From an uncultured Methylophaga sp. (GTDB lineage Bacteria > Pseudomonadota > Gammaproteobacteria > Nitrosococcales > Methylophagaceae): a stretch of 64,000 bases of DNA. A model generated the notes under the pieces. The model was not told where the DNA came from and did not search any database. It worked only from the letters and a program-made list of their open reading frames with translations. The stretch covers positions 23,945 to 87,944 of the forward strand of contig NZ_CAMYKO010000007.1 of the NCBI RefSeq assembly GCF_947259025.1. Direction: 5' to 3'. Shown piece by piece: positions 1,422 to 30,663 of the stretch; position 1 is the first letter of the stretch; each line of letters starts with the position of its first letter. The position numbers were made by a program, and so were the translations under genes.

Positions 1422-2006
1422 ATGAATGCAGATCAAGAGCTAGTACGACGCGTACAGGCAGGTGATAAAAAAGCGTTTGACTTGTTGATCATGAAATATC
1501 AACAGCGGATTATCCATGTGATTACCGGCTTTGTACATGACCCGGTTGAAGCCATGGATGTGGCCCAGGAAGCTTTCATTAAAGCTTATCGCGCGCTGCC
1601 CGGCTTTCGCGGCGACAGCGCCTTCTATACCTGGCTGTATCGTATTGCTATCAATACTTCAAAAAACTATCTGACAGCCGCATCCCGCCGGCCTCCGGTG
1701 ACGGATGTGGATGCCGGTGATGCCACGATTTATTACGACGCGCCGGAATTGAAGGAATTTCAAACCCCTGAAAACAGTCTCATGAGTGATGAATTGCAAC
1801 AAGCGATTCATGAGGCGATTCAGGAATTGCCGGAGGATACGGCAACAGCCATCAAACTGCGGGAGTTTGAAGGCTTGAGTTACGAGGAAATTGCACAGGC
1901 GATGGATTGTCCAATTGGTACAGTGCGTTCCCGTATCTTTCGCGCCAGAGAGGCAATAGATAAACAGGTCAAAGCAGTGATGACGGGTGGAGAGGAACAA
2001 CAATGA
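1422..2006 (+). CDS. rpoE: RNA polymerase ECF sigma factor RpoE/AlgU
   Basis: DQELVRRVQAGDKKAFDLL, FRGDSAFYTWLYRIAINT, CPIGTVRSRIFRAREAID. Confidence 0.97.
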   Translation: MNADQELVRRVQAGDKKAFDLLIMKYQQRIIHVITGFVHDPVEAMDVAQEAFIKAYRALPGFRGDSAFYTWLYRIAINTSKNYLTAASRRPPVTDVDAGDATIYYDAPELKEFQTPENSLMSDELQQAIHEAIQELPEDTATAIKLREFEGLSYEEIAQAMDCPIGTVRSRIFRAREAIDKQVKAVMTGGEEQQ

Positions 2007-2569
2007 CTGCCAAGCAACAAGAATTATTGTCGGCATTTGTCGATGGAGAATTAAACCAACAAGAACTGGATGAGCTTTTGTCACTGATGGATTCTGATGA
2101 GAATGCCAGAGCTGACTTTCTCAGTTACCAGTTTTCCAGTGATGTATTACGAGGCTATACCAGCCGCAGTGAACCTATCGATCTAAGCAATCGTATCAGC
2201 GCTGCTCTGGAGTCTGAACCGGCTCATCAGTCAGCTAAAGCGGCTGGTGAAAAAGCCCGCGTTCTTAAATTACCGGACTGGTTCTGGAAGCAAACTGCCG
2301 GACTGGCTGCCGCAGCATCGATTGGTGCACTGGCTGTCGTCGGCGTGATTGATCAACCACAGAACTCGGTGACACCGGAACTGGCCCAGGCGCAACCCCA
2401 GCCGCAGGTGATTCAGCAACAGCCAAATGTCGCTGCTTCCAACCGCTGGACGGTGGGCGAGCGTGAAGTGGAAGACCGGCTCAACAATTATCTGGTTGAC
2501 CATAATGAATATGCTGGTGCCTCTGGTCTGTTCTCCTATGCCCGCGTCGTTTCATACGGTGAGGAGTAA
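2003..2569 (+). CDS. rseA: Anti-sigma factor RseA/MucA
   Basis: N-terminal LSAFVDGEL, one TM segment, C-terminal LNNYLVDHNEY; overlaps the rpoE stop. Confidence 0.9.
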   Translation: MTAKQQELLSAFVDGELNQQELDELLSLMDSDENARADFLSYQFSSDVLRGYTSRSEPIDLSNRISAALESEPAHQSAKAAGEKARVLKLPDWFWKQTAGLAAAASIGALAVVGVIDQPQNSVTPELAQAQPQPQVIQQQPNVAASNRWTVGEREVEDRLNNYLVDHNEYAGASGLFSYARVVSYGEE

Positions 2570-2575
2570 CATTTG

Positions 2576-3559
2576 ATGCGTTTTTTGCTTCACCTGTTTC
2601 TGGCAATGGCGCTGGCCTTACCGGCAGCGAGTTATGCGGCTGACGATGAAAAGGCCATCCAGATCCTGGAACGAATGACAGAGGCAGCAAAAAATCTCAC
2701 TTATGAAGGCGTCTTTGCCTACCAGTCAGGTAAGAACCTGCAGTCGATCCGAATCTACCATCGTGCTGATGCGCGTGGTGAATTGGAGCGGCTCATTTCA
2801 CTTAACGGTGCTGCACGCGAAGTCATCCGCAGTAATGATATGGTGACCTGTATTAATCCTGAAGGGAAGCAGGTCAATGTCAGCCGCCGGCCCCTGGGGC
2901 GCGGCTTTCCCAGTGACCTGCCGCGGCGTTTGAGTTCAGCCACACCGTTCTACGATGTCAAACTGGGCGATACCGATCGCATTGCCGGACGCAAAGCCTA
3001 TGAGTTGAACATCACCCCGGTGGATGATTACCGCTACGGTTATCGTCTGTGGGTCGATACCCAGACTTATTTGCTGCTCAAGTCAGAGTTGCTGGGCACT
3101 GATGGCGATGTGCTGGAAACCTTTGCTTTTTCTTCGATTAATACCGACGTTCACATCCCTGATCACAAACTGCGCTCACAAATGGCTGGAGAAGAGATGA
3201 CCTGGCACCGTAGTGAACCGGAAGAGCCCATCAATACAGCCACATCCAGCCAACAGTCTCGCTGGCAGACGGGTTGGTTGCCCGATGGTTTTGCTCAGGT
3301 GGCGTATCAAACCCGTCTTCGAGCCAGTAATGGCGCTGATGTTGAACAACGCGTCTATAGCGACGGACTGAGCTCTGTTTCCGTCTTTATCGAGAGAATC
3401 CGTGCGCGTCATAACCATCTGCATGGCGGCTCTCATGTCGGCGCTATCAATGCCTTTGGCACCATCATGCATGCACATTTTGTCACGGTTGTCGGTGAAG
3501 TACCTGCAGACACCGTCAAAAAAATCGGCAACCAGATTAGCTTCAGCGATACCCCCTGA
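2576..3559 (+). CDS. rseB: Periplasmic sigmaE regulator RseB/MucB
   Basis: Signal peptide, LTYEGVFAY, YRYGYRLWVD, VYSDGLSSVSVFIE. Confidence 0.92.
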   Translation: MRFLLHLFLAMALALPAASYAADDEKAIQILERMTEAAKNLTYEGVFAYQSGKNLQSIRIYHRADARGELERLISLNGAAREVIRSNDMVTCINPEGKQVNVSRRPLGRGFPSDLPRRLSSATPFYDVKLGDTDRIAGRKAYELNITPVDDYRYGYRLWVDTQTYLLLKSELLGTDGDVLETFAFSSINTDVHIPDHKLRSQMAGEEMTWHRSEPEEPINTATSSQQSRWQTGWLPDGFAQVAYQTRLRASNGADVEQRVYSDGLSSVSVFIERIRARHNHLHGGSHVGAINAFGTIMHAHFVTVVGEVPADTVKKIGNQISFSDTP

Positions 3560-3981
3560 TGATTGAGCAAAAAGCTACTGTCATAGGCCGCGAAGGCAAT
3601 ATTGTCTGGGTTGAGGCTGAGCGACAATCCACCTGTAGTCAGTGTCAGGCCCGTAAAGGTTGTGGCACCGGTATGCTTGCCAAACATGTTGGCCAGCGTT
3701 TTTCCCGTCTCGCAGTCCACACAGATGAAAAACTGGAAGCCGGCCAGCAGGTCATGGTGTCCATTCCCGAACAGGCGCTGCTGAGCGGAGCACTGATGAT
3801 GTATCTGTTGCCGCTGATATTCCTGTTTGCTACTGCGATGCTGGCACGCCTTACAGGTGTCGGGGAACTGCTCCAGATAATGGCTGGTCTACTAGGACTG
3901 TGTGCCGGATTCTACTGGGTCAAGCATCAAATCAAAGGCCATAATCCCGGCGTCCGTGTTCAAACAACAGAGGATTTCTAA
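3559..3981 (+). CDS. rseC: RseC/MucC (SoxR reducing system) protein
   Basis: CSQCQARKGCG motif and two C-terminal TM helices. Confidence 0.92.
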   Translation: MIEQKATVIGREGNIVWVEAERQSTCSQCQARKGCGTGMLAKHVGQRFSRLAVHTDEKLEAGQQVMVSIPEQALLSGALMMYLLPLIFLFATAMLARLTGVGELLQIMAGLLGLCAGFYWVKHQIKGHNPGVRVQTTEDF

Positions 3982-5405
3982 TGAGACATAGCAAAACCTG
4001 GACAGCAGTAATGATGCTGACGGCTTGGTTGCTGCTGAGCTTTAATGTACAGGCCCGCGCTTTGCCAGAATTCACCGAACTGGTGGCTGAAAACGGTGAA
4101 GCAGTCGTCAACATCAGTACCCGCAATAAACAGGAGCAATCGGGACCTTCATCAATGTTGCCCCCAGGCATGGAGATTCCGGAAGGTTCGGGCATTGAAG
4201 ACTTCTTCAAAAAATTCTTTGAAGGCTCACCAGGTATGCCCAACCCGCGCGAGAAGGAATCACTGGGTTCCGGTTTCGTATTGTCTGAGGACGGCTTCAT
4301 CCTGACCAACCACCATGTCATTCGTGACGCGGAAGAAATTATAGTTCGTTTCAGCGATCGCACCGAGATGGAAGCAGAATTGCTGGGCAGCGACGAACGC
4401 AGTGACATCGCCTTGCTCAAGGTTGATGCCAGCGGCCTAAAGGCTGTGAAGCTGGGTGATTCCAACGAACTGCAAGTTGGTGAATGGGTGTTGGCTATTG
4501 GCTCACCGTTTGGCTTTGATTATTCAGCCACTGCCGGTATTGTCAGTGCTCTGGGTCGTAGTTTGCCGAGCGATAGTTATGTTCCTTTCATTCAAACAGA
4601 CGTGGCAATCAACCCGGGTAACTCCGGTGGCCCGTTGTTCAATCTGGATGGTGAAGTCATAGGCATCAACTCACAAATATACAGCCGTACCGGCGGATTT
4701 ATGGGTGTCTCTTTTGCTATTCCCATTGATACTGTTATGAATGTTGTTGCCCAGATCAAAGATCAGGGCTATGTCAGTCGCGGCTGGCTGGGTGTTGTCA
4801 TTCAGGACATGACCCGTGAACTGGCTGAATCTTTCGGTCTTGAAAAACCAACCGGCGCGTTGGTATCCCGGGTTGTTGCTGACAGTCCAGCCTCTGATGC
4901 CGGATTCAAGGCAGGGGATGTCATTATGACTTTTGATGGTAAGAAGGTCGAAACGTCCTCAGATTTGCCTCCGATTGTCGGACGCACCAGGGTTAATAAA
5001 GAGGTCGATGTTGTGGTCATGCGTGATAATAAACGTGAAACCATTCAGGTCACCATTGACGAATTACCTGAAGAGCAGGATCTGGCTGCAGCAACTGGTA
5101 GCAGCAAACCGGGCCGCTTTGTTGCTGAGAATCTGTCGATGGAAGTATCTGAAATCAAACCGCAACAACGTGAGAAGCTCAACCTGCAGGAAGGTGGGGC
5201 TATGGTCATGAAAATAGAAAAAGGCCCGGCCATTACCGCAGGTATCCGACCTGGTGACGTGATTCTTAGCCTCAATAATGTTGATGTCAAAGGCGCAGCA
5301 CATTTGGTCGAAATTGCCATTGATTTGCCAGAAAATAAACAAATCCCTGTACTGATCCAGCGTAATGGTCAGACACAGTTTCTGGCACTGAAAATCGAAA
5401 AGTAA
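3981..5405 (+). CDS. mucD: DegQ/MucD-family periplasmic serine endoprotease
   Basis: LTNHHV, SDIALLKV, AINPGNSGGPL catalytic motifs; two PDZ domains. Confidence 0.93.
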   Translation: MRHSKTWTAVMMLTAWLLLSFNVQARALPEFTELVAENGEAVVNISTRNKQEQSGPSSMLPPGMEIPEGSGIEDFFKKFFEGSPGMPNPREKESLGSGFVLSEDGFILTNHHVIRDAEEIIVRFSDRTEMEAELLGSDERSDIALLKVDASGLKAVKLGDSNELQVGEWVLAIGSPFGFDYSATAGIVSALGRSLPSDSYVPFIQTDVAINPGNSGGPLFNLDGEVIGINSQIYSRTGGFMGVSFAIPIDTVMNVVAQIKDQGYVSRGWLGVVIQDMTRELAESFGLEKPTGALVSRVVADSPASDAGFKAGDVIMTFDGKKVETSSDLPPIVGRTRVNKEVDVVVMRDNKRETIQVTIDELPEEQDLAAATGSSKPGRFVAENLSMEVSEIKPQQREKLNLQEGGAMVMKIEKGPAITAGIRPGDVILSLNNVDVKGAAHLVEIAIDLPENKQIPVLIQRNGQTQFLALKIEK

Positions 5406-28098: not shown

Positions 28099-28179
28099 AA
28101 TCTGCCTCGTTGCATGGGTGGTGGTCCATCTTAATGAAACGGGCCGGCAAAAGGCAATCGAGGGCTTTGATGTTTATTT

Positions 28180-28205
28180 TGTAACGTTTGGTGTTTGAGA
28201 CCGTC
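28180..28205 (+). promoter_or_regulatory. ECF-sigma-type promoter of the bufferin cluster
   Basis: TGTAAC-N16-CGTC, about 90 bp upstream of the first precursor. Confidence 0.5.
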
Positions 28206-28294
28206 GACACTGTAGGGAGGCGCCCCCCTACTATCATCATTAACGGCCCAGGCTGTGAGTGATGCTCGAAACCTTAATGATAGAAGGGAGTGAT

Positions 28295-28558
28295 ATGAAT
28301 AAATTGAAAACAACAACGGGACTGGCCCTGGCCGTCGCTGCAGCGGGATTGATGGGCTGTACGGCAAACCAGGCAAACACCAGTCAGGCCAGTGCCCAGG
28401 AAATGGTGCATTGTCACGGCGTTAACAAATGCGCCGGTCATAACGACTGCAAAACGGCAGATAATGCTTGTGCCGGGCAGGGGGCATGTAAAGGCCAGGG
28501 GTTTGTCACCATGTCTGCCAAAGCCTGTGGTGATGTCGGCGGCGAAGTCGGCAGTTAA
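28295..28558 (+). CDS. BufA2-like Cys-rich RiPP precursor 1 (probable lipoprotein)
   Basis: GGGAG RBS; signal ending LMG-C; core [33 protein letters not shown]; adjacent to DUF692. Confidence 0.8.
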
Positions 28559-28593
28559 TTTACTTTCGTCGCTGGACGAATAAGGAGACAAAC

Positions 28594-28926
28594 ATGAAAA
28601 AATCAACCACAGCAACTGGCGTGGCTTTGGCCTTTGCCGCAGCGAGCATGATGGGCGCTGCCACGGTTAATGCCGCACCGAGTGAATCCGCCAACGTGCA
28701 TTGTTACGGCGTCAATGTCTGTAAAGGCCATAACGACTGTAAAGTATCCGGTAATGCCTGTAAGGGGCAGAATGATTGCAAAACGGCCGATAATGCCTGT
28801 AAAGGTCAGGCCGATTGCAAAACAGCAGGCAATGCCTGTGCCGGTCAGTCTTCATGCAAAGGACAGGGCTTTGTTGCCATGTCAGCAGAGGCCTGTGATC
28901 AAATTGGTGGTACAGTCGGTAAATAA
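28594..28926 (+). CDS. BufA2-like Cys-rich RiPP precursor 2 (repeat-expanded)
   Basis: GGAG RBS; Sec signal ending VNA; core HCYGVNV + 3 x CKGxxDCKxxxNA + [13 protein letters not shown]. Confidence 0.82.
28720..28836 (+). repeat. Three imperfect 39-bp (13-aa) in-frame tandem repeats
   Basis: Units 28720-28758, 28759-28797, 28798-28836 encode [39 protein letters not shown]. Confidence 0.9.
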
Positions 28927-28993
28927 GCCGATAGGTCATCGACTTCATGTCGCTGTTGCGGCATGAAGTCGATCATCCTTTTAAGGAGCGCTT

Positions 28994-29863
28994 ATGACAC
29001 GTCCGTTTCTGGGATTCGGTCTTGGCTTGAGGACCGATCATTACCAGCACATTATTGAACATCAGCCACCGATCGACTGGTTTGAAATCTTGTCTGAAAA
29101 CTATATGGTGCCGGGCGGTAAACCGTTAGCTAACCTCGACAGAATCCGTCAGGATTACCCCATGGTGATGCACGGGGTGTCGATGTCGATAGGTAGTACC
29201 GATCCACTTAATACCCGCTATCTGGATAAGCTCAAGGCATTGATTGAGCGGGTTGAGCCTGCCTGGGTTTCTGATCATCTGTGCTGGACCACGGTGGATC
29301 ATATCAACAGTCATGATTTGCTGCCGTTGCCGTATAACGAGGCGGTGATAAAGCACATTGTTGATCGCATACAGGCGGTGCAGGACTATATCGGTCGCGA
29401 GATCCTGATCGAGAACCTGTCCAGTTATGTGACTTATCACAGCTCGGAGATGAGCGAATGGCAATTTGTCAACGAGATTGCCCGTCGCAGTGGCTGTTTC
29501 CTGCTGGTCGATATCAATAATATTTTTGTCAGTGCCAATAATCATCACTTTGATCCGCGTGACTACATCAACGGCATTGATCCGGATCGGGTCATGCAGT
29601 TTCATCTTGCCGGGCATAGCTATCATGGCGAGATGATTATTGATACCCATGATCATCCGGTGTGTGAGTCAGTCTGGGATCTCTATCAGTATGCGCTGGA
29701 GCGCTATGGCGCCGTCAGCACGATGATAGAGCGGGATGACAACATTCCTCCCTTTGCGGAACTGCATGAGGAACTGACTCGGGCTGAGACTATAGCCCGC
29801 CGGACATTGACCGCAGAACAACTGGCGATCAACAGCGGCCGGATGATGCAGGGAGTTGCCTGA
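28994..29863 (+). CDS. DUF692 multinuclear non-heme iron oxidative enzyme (BufB-like)
   Basis: GFGLGLR, WFEILSENY, HGVSMSIG, SDHLCW, ILIENLSSY, DINNIFVS, HLAGH, DTH, IERDD. Confidence 0.92.
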   Translation: MTRPFLGFGLGLRTDHYQHIIEHQPPIDWFEILSENYMVPGGKPLANLDRIRQDYPMVMHGVSMSIGSTDPLNTRYLDKLKALIERVEPAWVSDHLCWTTVDHINSHDLLPLPYNEAVIKHIVDRIQAVQDYIGREILIENLSSYVTYHSSEMSEWQFVNEIARRSGCFLLVDINNIFVSANNHHFDPRDYINGIDPDRVMQFHLAGHSYHGEMIIDTHDHPVCESVWDLYQYALERYGAVSTMIERDDNIPPFAELHEELTRAETIARRTLTAEQLAINSGRMMQGVA

Positions 29864-29865
29864 CA

Positions 29866-30663
29866 ATGGAGCTGAGGAGTTTACAGCAGCAGTTCCTCTA
29901 TCACCTGCTGGGTGAGTCAACCGGGTTGGAGAAGGTGATCGAGTCAACCCCGATGATGTCCGCCCGCGACCGGCTGAATATCTACGCCAATGGCTACCGC
30001 ATGCGGTTAAAAGAAGCGCTGCAGACCGACTTCGACAAACTCCACAGTTATCTTGGTGACGCGCAGTTTGATGCTTTGATGAATCGATATATCGACACCC
30101 ATCCATCACACACCACCAGCCTGCGTTATTTCAGTATTGCATTAGCGGAAATGCTGGCACAGGAATCACCTTACAGCGAACATATTGAGCTCGCGGAGCT
30201 GGCAAAGATTGAGCAGGCATTCGCCAACAGCTTTGATGCTGGCAATGCAGCCTGTTTGTCTCTGGAACATTTTGCTTCAATTCCTGAACAGGCCTGGCCG
30301 TCGTTACAGTTGACGATGCAACCTTCGCTGCAAATTATTGCTTGTTACAGCAATGCGTTTGCTATCTGGAAAGCCTTGTCTGCCGGTGAGCCGCCACCTG
30401 AAGCACAGCATCGTGATGAGGTTGAATACTGGGTGGTCTGGCGTCGTCCAGATCTGATTAGCCATTATCGACCTTTAGCGTTTGCCGAATATACCGCGCT
30501 CAAATCCATGTCTGAAGGGGACAGCTTTGCTGAGCTCTGCGAGCAACTGCTGGACTTGTTTTCGGAGACAGACACACCCATCAAGGCGATTGGCTTTTTA
30601 CAATCCTGGGTGCAGGAAGATATGCTGGCCGGGTTGGATTACGACGGTATTAACGCGACTTGA
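29866..30663 (+). CDS. DUF2063 partner protein (BufC-like, RRE/DNA-binding-like)
   Basis: LQQQF..HL, RLNIYANGYRMRL..AL, ELAKIEQA; directly after DUF692. Confidence 0.85.
   Translation: MELRSLQQQFLYHLLGESTGLEKVIESTPMMSARDRLNIYANGYRMRLKEALQTDFDKLHSYLGDAQFDALMNRYIDTHPSHTTSLRYFSIALAEMLAQESPYSEHIELAELAKIEQAFANSFDAGNAACLSLEHFASIPEQAWPSLQLTMQPSLQIIACYSNAFAIWKALSAGEPPPEAQHRDEVEYWVVWRRPDLISHYRPLAFAEYTALKSMSEGDSFAELCEQLLDLFSETDTPIKAIGFLQSWVQEDMLAGLDYDGINAT

Follow-up and report, generated by a model that had tools for sequence, protein, structure and literature searches.

The window analysed here is a stretch of 64,000 nucleotides from an uncultured Methylophaga sp. (contig NZ_CAMYKO010000007.1, positions 23,945 to 87,944 of the forward strand), and our subject is a bufferin-type locus at window positions 28295 to 30663. 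The open reading frame listing and the sequence give four consecutive genes on the plus strand. The first two, bufA2-I (28295..28558) and bufA2-II (28594..28926), encode precursors of 87 and 110 residues that are paralogues of one another (48% identity, E 1e-26). They are followed by bufB (28994..29863), which encodes a 289-residue MNIO (DUF692) maturase, and by bufC (29866..30663), which encodes a 265-residue DUF2063 partner with an RRE-like C-terminal half. A Shine-Dalgarno-like sequence precedes each of the four genes, and 2 nt separate the bufB stop from the bufC start. Of the two copies, the precursor of the lipid-anchored type comes first and the soluble type second, ahead of bufB-bufC. 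We consider it highly probable that the four genes form an operon of the Buf2 bufferin type ('Cys-Lys captophorin') and work by the mechanism proposed below.

An initial annotation, made from the sequence alone, had placed two paralogous BufA2-like precursors ahead of a single DUF692-DUF2063 pair, and they are present at exactly those coordinates. Its family assignments were all upheld by curated hidden Markov models. Both precursors score above the cut-off of 60 bits in NCBIfam NF050166, 'BufA2 family periplasmic bufferin-type metallophore' (80.1 bits for bufA2-I and 110.2 bits for bufA2-II). Neither matches NF050137 or NF050188, and EGKCG repeats are absent from both. BufB matches Pfam PF05114 (E 2.4e-111) and reaches 393.1 bits in NF050167, 'MNIO family bufferin maturase', for which the cut-off is 310. 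That annotation would have been undermined if the DUF692 protein had grouped with non-bufferin MNIOs, but BufB falls below the cut-offs of the NCBIfam equivalog models for HvfB (262.2 bits against 360), ApyH, MbnB and ChrH. In the MbnB model TIGR04159 it scores 66.6 bits against a cut-off of 325, so that this model does not class it as a methanobactin enzyme. BufC matches PF09836 (DUF2063) with 69.5 bits against a cut-off of 27.2, and its 33.3 bits in the HvfC model lie far under the cut-off of 142.

The structural comparisons are consistent with these assignments. By sequence, the closest solved structures to BufB are 3BWW, TglH (8HCI) and MbnB. A sequence search of the PDB gave no match for BufC, and its relatives there were found by fold search only. 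The AlphaFold2 model of BufC (predicted local distance difference test, pLDDT, 94.9) has its best Foldseek match in 3DEE, NGO1945 (E 2e-7, TM 0.72 on the target), which serves the gonococcal captophorin system as its partner protein; TglI (8HI7/8HCI) comes next, and there are weaker fold matches to lasso-peptide RRE proteins. Based on the curated models, the fold of BufC and six invariant cysteines in the precursors, we place the four genes in the Buf2 family.

The precursor frames are small, and nothing else would suggest that they are chance frames or functionless decaying duplicates. That reading is refuted by scores above curated cut-offs, by orthologues at the same position in related genomes, by about 1500 homologues in a global protein collection and by high RNA coverage, and we give it practically no credence.

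The two precursors and related loci

The cysteine motif given in the initial annotation, HCxGVNxCxGHNDCK...CKGQGF...C, was found in both small proteins. However, that description missed the lipobox of precursor I and the presence of 10 rather than 6 core cysteines in precursor II. The signal peptides were read by eye. That of precursor I has a Lys-rich n-region and an Ala/Leu h-region and ends in a lipobox, L19-M20-G21-C22. After the lipobox comes a linker of 16 residues (Thr/Ala/Asn/Gln/Ser) and then a core with six cysteines, C40, C46, C52, C59, C65 and C78 (spacing C5C5C6C5C12C). Precursor II has nearly identical n- and h-regions, which continue as …TVNA/AP without a cysteine, and its signal is of the signal-peptidase-I type. 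Its core holds C37, C43, C49, C56, C62, C69, C75, C82, C88 and C101 (spacing C5C5C6C5C6C5C6C5C12C), that is, six cysteines plus four. Residues 49-74 (28738..28815, plus strand) form a 26-residue insert made of two extra 13-residue units with two cysteines each, and this insert is a gap in every 6-Cys homologue of a 52-sequence alignment.

In the same alignment C37, C43, C75, C82, C88 and C101 (precursor II numbering) are invariant across the 52 homologues, a conservation that, judged from the alignment, is far beyond chance. The signal-peptide positions G9, A13, A16 and A17 are also invariant or nearly so, which exceeds the needs of export alone. A leader function overlapping the signal peptide has been raised as an open possibility for bufferins (PMC11626156), and the conserved G9, A13, A16 and A17 fit such a role. 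By analogy with known bufferins, we predict four thiooxazoles in the product of precursor I and up to eight in that of precursor II.

To place this pair of precursors, we took 80 loci around BufB relatives, for 78 of which a script gave a precursor architecture. The most common arrangement was one soluble 6-Cys precursor (26 loci), followed by two soluble 6-Cys precursors of the Bradyrhizobium type (17 loci) and a 12-Cys fusion with a lipobox (11 loci). A lipobox copy followed by a soluble copy, both with six cysteines, was found in 7 loci, one lipobox 6-Cys precursor in 4, one lipobox 10-Cys precursor in 3 and a 12-Cys fusion without lipobox in 3. Two loci resemble the window in having a lipobox 6-Cys precursor and then a soluble 10-Cys precursor; these come from a Cycloclasticus sponge symbiont and from a Piscirickettsiaceae metagenome-assembled genome. 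The remaining 5 loci are other single cases. In this scoring L023 counts among the loci with a single soluble precursor; since a lipobox copy, partly masked, stands ahead of that precursor, it is in fact an eighth lipobox-then-soluble locus. The loci in which the first copy bears a lipobox include L010, L017-L019, L021-L023 and L025-L027.

Tandem precursors are thus found in about one-third of the loci near BufB relatives, and in gammaproteobacteria the usual pair has the anchored copy first and the soluble copy second (about 10 related loci in several genera). The available text of the Buf2 survey (PMC12452194) gives lipoprotein signals for about 16% of Buf2 precursors, and either 6 cysteines (90%) or 12 as the only forms. 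The 10-Cys form recurs in L011, L013, L016, L017 and L018 and belongs to a small marine subfamily, with about 20 clusters among 1505 matches in the global protein collection. A maximum-likelihood tree of the core domains (120 domains, 51 columns) was mostly unresolved, with only the Bradyrhizobium-type first copies forming a supported clade (100/99). In several lineages both copies of one locus group together (L017/L018, L019), and this suggests repeated duplication or gene conversion. Because the tree is poorly resolved, it does not decide between a single and a repeated origin of the anchored/soluble pair.

The enzyme pair, its substrates and the genomic site

BufB carries Asp248-Asp249 inside an ERDDN motif, and Asp-Asp is present in 76 of the 80 BufB relatives. 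The genome encodes no other BufB. Another MNIO/DUF2063 pair lies at C5:676624-679037 (L006 4625-7038) and is of the HvfB type (451 bits against 360) and the HvfC type (312 bits against 142). The HvfB-like enzyme has ERDFN, with Asp-Phe where BufB has Asp-Asp. This difference is meaningful in light of published work, in which MNIOs of the Lys-Cys type have a Phe beside the catalytic Asp, whereas those of the Cys-Lys type have an Asp that contacts the substrate Lys (PMC13097082). The likely EGKCG precursor of the HvfB/HvfC-type pair is encoded far away, within C5:153913-156501. The HvfB/HvfC-type genes are preceded by one for a 251-residue secreted protein with a single CGC motif, which has no Pfam or NCBIfam match.

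As the genome has a sole BufB, as the two enzymes differ in Asp-Asp versus Asp-Phe, and as the Hvf-type pair has a separate EGKCG precursor, we assign both BufA2 proteins to BufB/BufC. These sequence features support the assignment and argue against cross-talk with the Hvf pair, short of proof. Alternatively, only one of the small proteins might be a BufB/BufC substrate, with the other being an unmodified, disulfide-bonded, Cys-rich periplasmic protein or a substrate of the HvfB/HvfC-like pair. Precursor I is poorer in Cys-Lys than precursor II (two of four central cysteines are followed by Lys, against seven of eight), a second enzyme pair is present in the genome, and the literature knows stand-alone precursor genes whose products may depend on enzymes of another locus or may stay unmodified. 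However, both precursors score above the cut-off of the BufA2 equivalog model and retain the six cysteines of the family, their genes lie on one RNA contig, and the pair is kept across several genera. Additionally, the second MNIO has the Phe of the Lys-Cys type and an EGKCG-type precursor of its own. We regard the single-substrate alternative as quite improbable. The proposal of the initial annotation, one enzyme pair making two products, has gained indirect support from the sole BufB, its Asp-Asp, the kept cysteines, the shared RNA contigs and the recurring precursor pair. The idea of one enzyme pair with several substrates is already published, and the available text of the Buf2 survey includes both tandem precursor genes and lipoprotein signals (PMC12452194).

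The nearest BufB is that of Methylophaga sp. OBS4 (81%). A BufB orthologue is present in only 2 of the 37 species genomes of the genus, and an HvfB-type MNIO is present in nearly all of them. In five complete congeners (L102-L106) only 9-78 bp separate the ADH and DUF1841 genes, which flank the operon here, and window positions 28099-30649 form a 2.55-kb buf cassette at that precise empty site, where bufC overlaps the convergent DUF1841 gene by 14 nt. Other Methylophaga-type genomes hold the cassette at the same chromosomal site. Thus, the buf operon is a variable cassette at a fixed site. The GC content of the cassette (50-53%) is slightly lower than that of its flanks (54-57%). Recent horizontal transfer was considered and set aside: with a GC content near that of the flanks and the site occupied in other Methylophaga-type genomes, there is no clear sign of import.

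Transcription and candidate regulation

The RNA evidence consists of assembled contigs from marine (seawater) metatranscriptomes, in which the word depth of a contig is a rough measure of expression. In X25 a precursor contig covers 28226-28979 at a word depth of 98, and in X13 one covers 28272-28981 at a depth of 103. Pieces of bufB and bufC in these two sets have depths of 0-16, and the upstream ADH gene has a depth of 0. Each of the two contigs spans both precursor genes without a break, which corresponds to an abundant RNA of about 750 nt. With its strong representation in marine metatranscriptomes, the operon is a system at work in the sea as opposed to a silent cluster.

The 3' ends of the two contigs, 28979 in X25 and 28981 in X13, fall directly after a hairpin and its tail, and both contigs continue as A-rich, non-genomic tails. 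This element, seen in a terminator scan and marked by the contig ends, occupies the spacer between bufA2-II and bufB (28938..28982, plus strand) and consists of a 16-bp stem-loop (28938-28973) with a CAUCCUUUU tail. It folds with an energy of -33.4 kcal/mol (z -5.7). In X12, X27 and X28 there are contigs that cross the hairpin to 29308-29558, which means that read-through into bufB occurs. Of 78 related loci, 64 have a stem of at least 8 bp in this spacer, compared with 22 of 78 control windows, and in 47 loci the stem is followed by a T-rich tail. We take this element as a leaky intrinsic terminator or an RNA-stabilising 3' hairpin that leaves precursor in excess over enzyme. Such an excess is a common design in operons for peptides that are made on the ribosome and modified after translation (RiPPs).

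The 5' leader contains a near-perfect palindrome of 20 nt (GTAGGGAGGC/GCCCCCCTAC; 28214..28233, plus strand). RNA contigs from three runs in two studies begin inside it, at 28226 (X25, X27) and 28227 (X28). These ends may mark where transcription really begins or where the RNA is processed, or may stem from library preparation at a 5' hairpin, and the palindrome itself may be an attenuator, a stabiliser or a library artefact. In L010, L011, L013, L014 and L016 this position behind the -10 box is taken by leader hairpins of other sequence, and several leader hairpins of relatives are followed by T-runs.

Upstream of the leader we propose a candidate promoter of the extracytoplasmic function (ECF) sigma type at 28181..28205 (plus strand), with GTAAC as the putative -35 element (28181-28185), a 16-nt spacer and CGTC as the putative -10 element (28202-28205). 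A scan for sigma-70 promoters found no site upstream of bufA2-I. Among 76 related loci, 9 have the motif GTAA[CT]-N15-17-CGTC upstream of their first precursor, at a distance of no more than 250 nt, where the background rate is 0.004 per 250 nt; 7 of these 9 are Methylophaga-type loci among L011-L020. Alphaproteobacterial (Bradyrhizobium-type) loci have GTAACC-N16-CGTA instead. In Caulobacter the sigmaF motif that drives buf1 and buf2 is GTAACC-N16-CGAA (PMC3511200).

Which sigma factor might recognize this promoter? We rejected a Caulobacter-like SigF/NrsF module, as NrsF (PF06532) was not found in the genome. The ECF sigma encoded in the window (1422-2006) was also rejected as a specific regulator, since it is RpoE, accompanied by RseA, RseB and RseC. 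Window positions 1422-5405 hold rpoE-rseA-rseB-rseC and then a gene for a DegP/HtrA-type protease, a general envelope-stress operon that is unrelated to the buf motif. A candidate is the ECF sigma encoded at C5:153913-154524, whose gene is overlapped by that of a 79-residue anti-sigma factor of the HxxxCxxC (zinc-finger) type (NF052368). Divergent from this pair is GTAAC-N17-GTCTA, which is near-identical to the motif before the bufA2 operon. The gene that follows encodes an hvfA-like EGKCG precursor (107 residues; NF050137, 54.7 bits against 19.5), and downstream of it are genes for HvfX/DoxX (238.6 bits against 80) and MsrP (410.7 bits against 207). C5:153913-156501 spans the sigma and anti-sigma genes, the EGKCG precursor frame, which is of a size that escapes annotation, HvfX/DoxX and MsrP.

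A genome-wide scan for the motif gave 2 strict and 9 relaxed matches, where about 4 would be expected by chance. The matches are suggestive only through their orientation and the identity of the genes behind them (hvfA-like, DsbD-like, anti-sigma). A copy of GTAAC…GTCTA at C4:110224-110251 lies directly upstream of a DsbD-like gene of 622 residues, which is either a regulon member or a chance match. A strict copy on the minus strand (C5:153984-154011) falls within the 3' end of the ECF sigma gene, at a distance of 75 nt upstream from where the anti-sigma gene starts, and may be an internal feedback promoter or a chance match. Given so short a motif, with about as many matches in the genome as chance would give, we offer a shared regulon of the buf operon and the Hvf-type locus as a tentative hypothesis.

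These neighbours also bear on the role of the products. It is possible that they are made as proposed, but serve mainly in defence against oxidative or chlorine stress, or in the handling of another thiophilic metal, under a thiol-stress ECF regulon. The near-identical motif before the hvfA-like, HvfX/DoxX and MsrP genes, beside an ECF sigma with a zinc-finger-type anti-sigma, points in this direction, as does the motif before the DsbD-like gene. Additionally, SigF/NrsF-type systems govern MsrP-type hypochlorite defence in other bacteria, according to the available part of one report (PMC4436054), and no copper-export genes adjoin the buf operon. Conversely, the only experimental data for the bufferin family are copper induction, copper binding and copper protection (PMC11626156, PMC13097082), and the link between sigma factor and operon is a short motif with a near-chance count. 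We consider a main role outside copper defence unlikely, and retain copper in the proposal that follows.

Proposed mechanism and comparison with known systems

Based on these data and on analogy with studied bufferins, we propose a model in which every step after transcription, including the chemistry, the lipidation and the role in copper handling, is inferred from related systems. Under envelope, copper or thiol stress, an ECF-type sigma factor would fire the GTAAC-N16-CGTC promoter. Most transcripts would end at the hairpin after bufA2-II, giving an abundant RNA of about 750 nt with both precursor genes, and a minority would read through to bufB and bufC, so that precursors outnumber enzymes. 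In the cytoplasm, a BufB-BufC complex would oxidise the central cysteines of both precursors, giving four 5-thiooxazoles in the first and as many as eight in the second, whereas the first and last core cysteines would stay free to form a disulfide, as in Caulobacter Buf2. Both products would be exported via Sec. Precursor I would be cut at the lipobox, lipidated on Cys22 and tethered to a membrane by its 16-residue linker; precursor II would be cut by signal peptidase I and be free in the periplasm. There, both would jointly sequester excess copper. The 5-thiooxazoles would be recognized by a loss of 4 Da per central cysteine and by absorbance near 305 nm.

Several observations weigh against this model. 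Two of the four central cysteines of precursor I lack the following Lys that the Cys-Lys type would lead one to expect. The AlphaFold2 model of precursor II, built from the 52-sequence alignment, is unreliable (pLDDT 52.8, and below 50 across the repeat insert), and a structural reading of the extra units was ruled out on account of this low pLDDT. The RNA 5' ends lie about 20 nt past the putative -10 box, beyond what is expected of an ECF promoter, so that one of the two, start site or promoter assignment, is wrong. To these we add the near-chance number of motif matches, the lack of NrsF in the genome and the poor quality of contig word depth as a gauge of expression.

A bolder version of the model can also be formulated, which we think doubtful. 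Here, the two precursors would be an obligate two-tier pair, in which the soluble 10-Cys protein is a high-capacity periplasmic copper sponge and the membrane-tethered 6-Cys protein an acceptor. This is hinted at by other gammaproteobacteria, where two such domains are often fused in one lipoprotein. The pair would belong to one regulon with the Hvf-type captophorin, DoxX/HvfX, MsrP and perhaps DsbD, controlled by an ECF sigma that is held by the small cytoplasmic zinc-finger anti-sigma and not by NrsF. Because such an anti-sigma is cytoplasmic, the trigger would be thiol or redox damage in the cytoplasm rather than metal in the periplasm. The amount of precursor relative to enzyme would be set by the conserved 5' leader hairpin together with the 3' attenuator.

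Bufferins and captophorins are a very large, recently recognized class of periplasmic copper-binding modified peptides, few members of which have been studied. The locus is a Buf2 operon of an already described kind, including the use of several substrates per enzyme, and it leaves the overall picture of bufferins unchanged. What it adds are useful leads and not surprises: the pairing of anchored and soluble precursors, precursor-specific RNA in situ, a conserved attenuator hairpin, a promoter shared with an Hvf-type locus and a cassette-like distribution. It is also a compact natural test case for the use of one BufB/BufC on several precursors, for a division of work between anchored and soluble products, and for precursor excess by means of an attenuator hairpin. 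The motif common to the buf operon and the Hvf-type locus, next to a sigma/anti-sigma pair without NrsF, is a lead on regulation outside the Alphaproteobacteria.

Among known systems, the closest is bufferin 2 of Caulobacter vibrioides (bufA2-bufB2-bufC2, CCNA_02999-03001; BUF_6/12Cys), which shares the precursor model family, the BufB-type MNIO and the DUF2063/RRE partner. In Caulobacter Buf2 the outer cysteines form a disulfide and the four central cysteines each lose 4 Da (PMC11626156); by analogy, the central cysteines of the window precursors are expected to become 5-thiooxazoles and the outer ones a disulfide. As in Caulobacter Buf2, the cluster has no DoxX gene, and its upstream motif resembles the Caulobacter sigmaF promoter (GTAAC…CG..). 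However, Caulobacter Buf2 has one precursor gene, whereas the window has two, of which bufA2-I encodes a lipoprotein signal and bufA2-II encodes 10 core cysteines in place of 6, and a terminator-like hairpin stands between precursor and enzyme genes in the window but not in Caulobacter. The genome also differs in having no NrsF and no SigF/NrsF pair beside any buf locus. The Buf2 biosynthetic gene clusters in the available text of the survey (PMC12452194) share tandem precursors and lipoprotein signals with the window; that text describes neither a regular arrangement in which an anchored copy comes before a soluble one nor the 10-Cys form with two extra 13-residue units, which we regard as small variations.

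The EGKCG or 'Lys-Cys' captophorins (HvfA/oxazolin, fontiphorin and gonophorin, with HvfB/HvfC/HvfX) share with the window the enzyme superfamily, the fold of the partner and a copper-related role, and after structural revision they probably share the thiooxazole chemistry as well. The Methylophaga genome also carries an Hvf-type system, which is split over two loci. Unlike these systems, the window precursors have no EGKCG repeats, and BufB has an Asp where enzymes of the HvfB/FonB type have a Phe. The Microbulbifer mmr cluster (PMC12538549) was rejected as a close comparator because it is of the EGKCG type. Methanobactin (MbnA/MbnB/MbnC) is more distant. In both systems an MNIO acts on cysteines of a ribosomal peptide to yield a copper ligand, but the partner in the window is a DUF2063 protein and not MbnC, and the precursors are small Sec-exported proteins instead of short leader-core peptides. 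Additionally, methanobactin serves copper acquisition, whereas the window system, by analogy with the bufferins, would serve copper detoxification.

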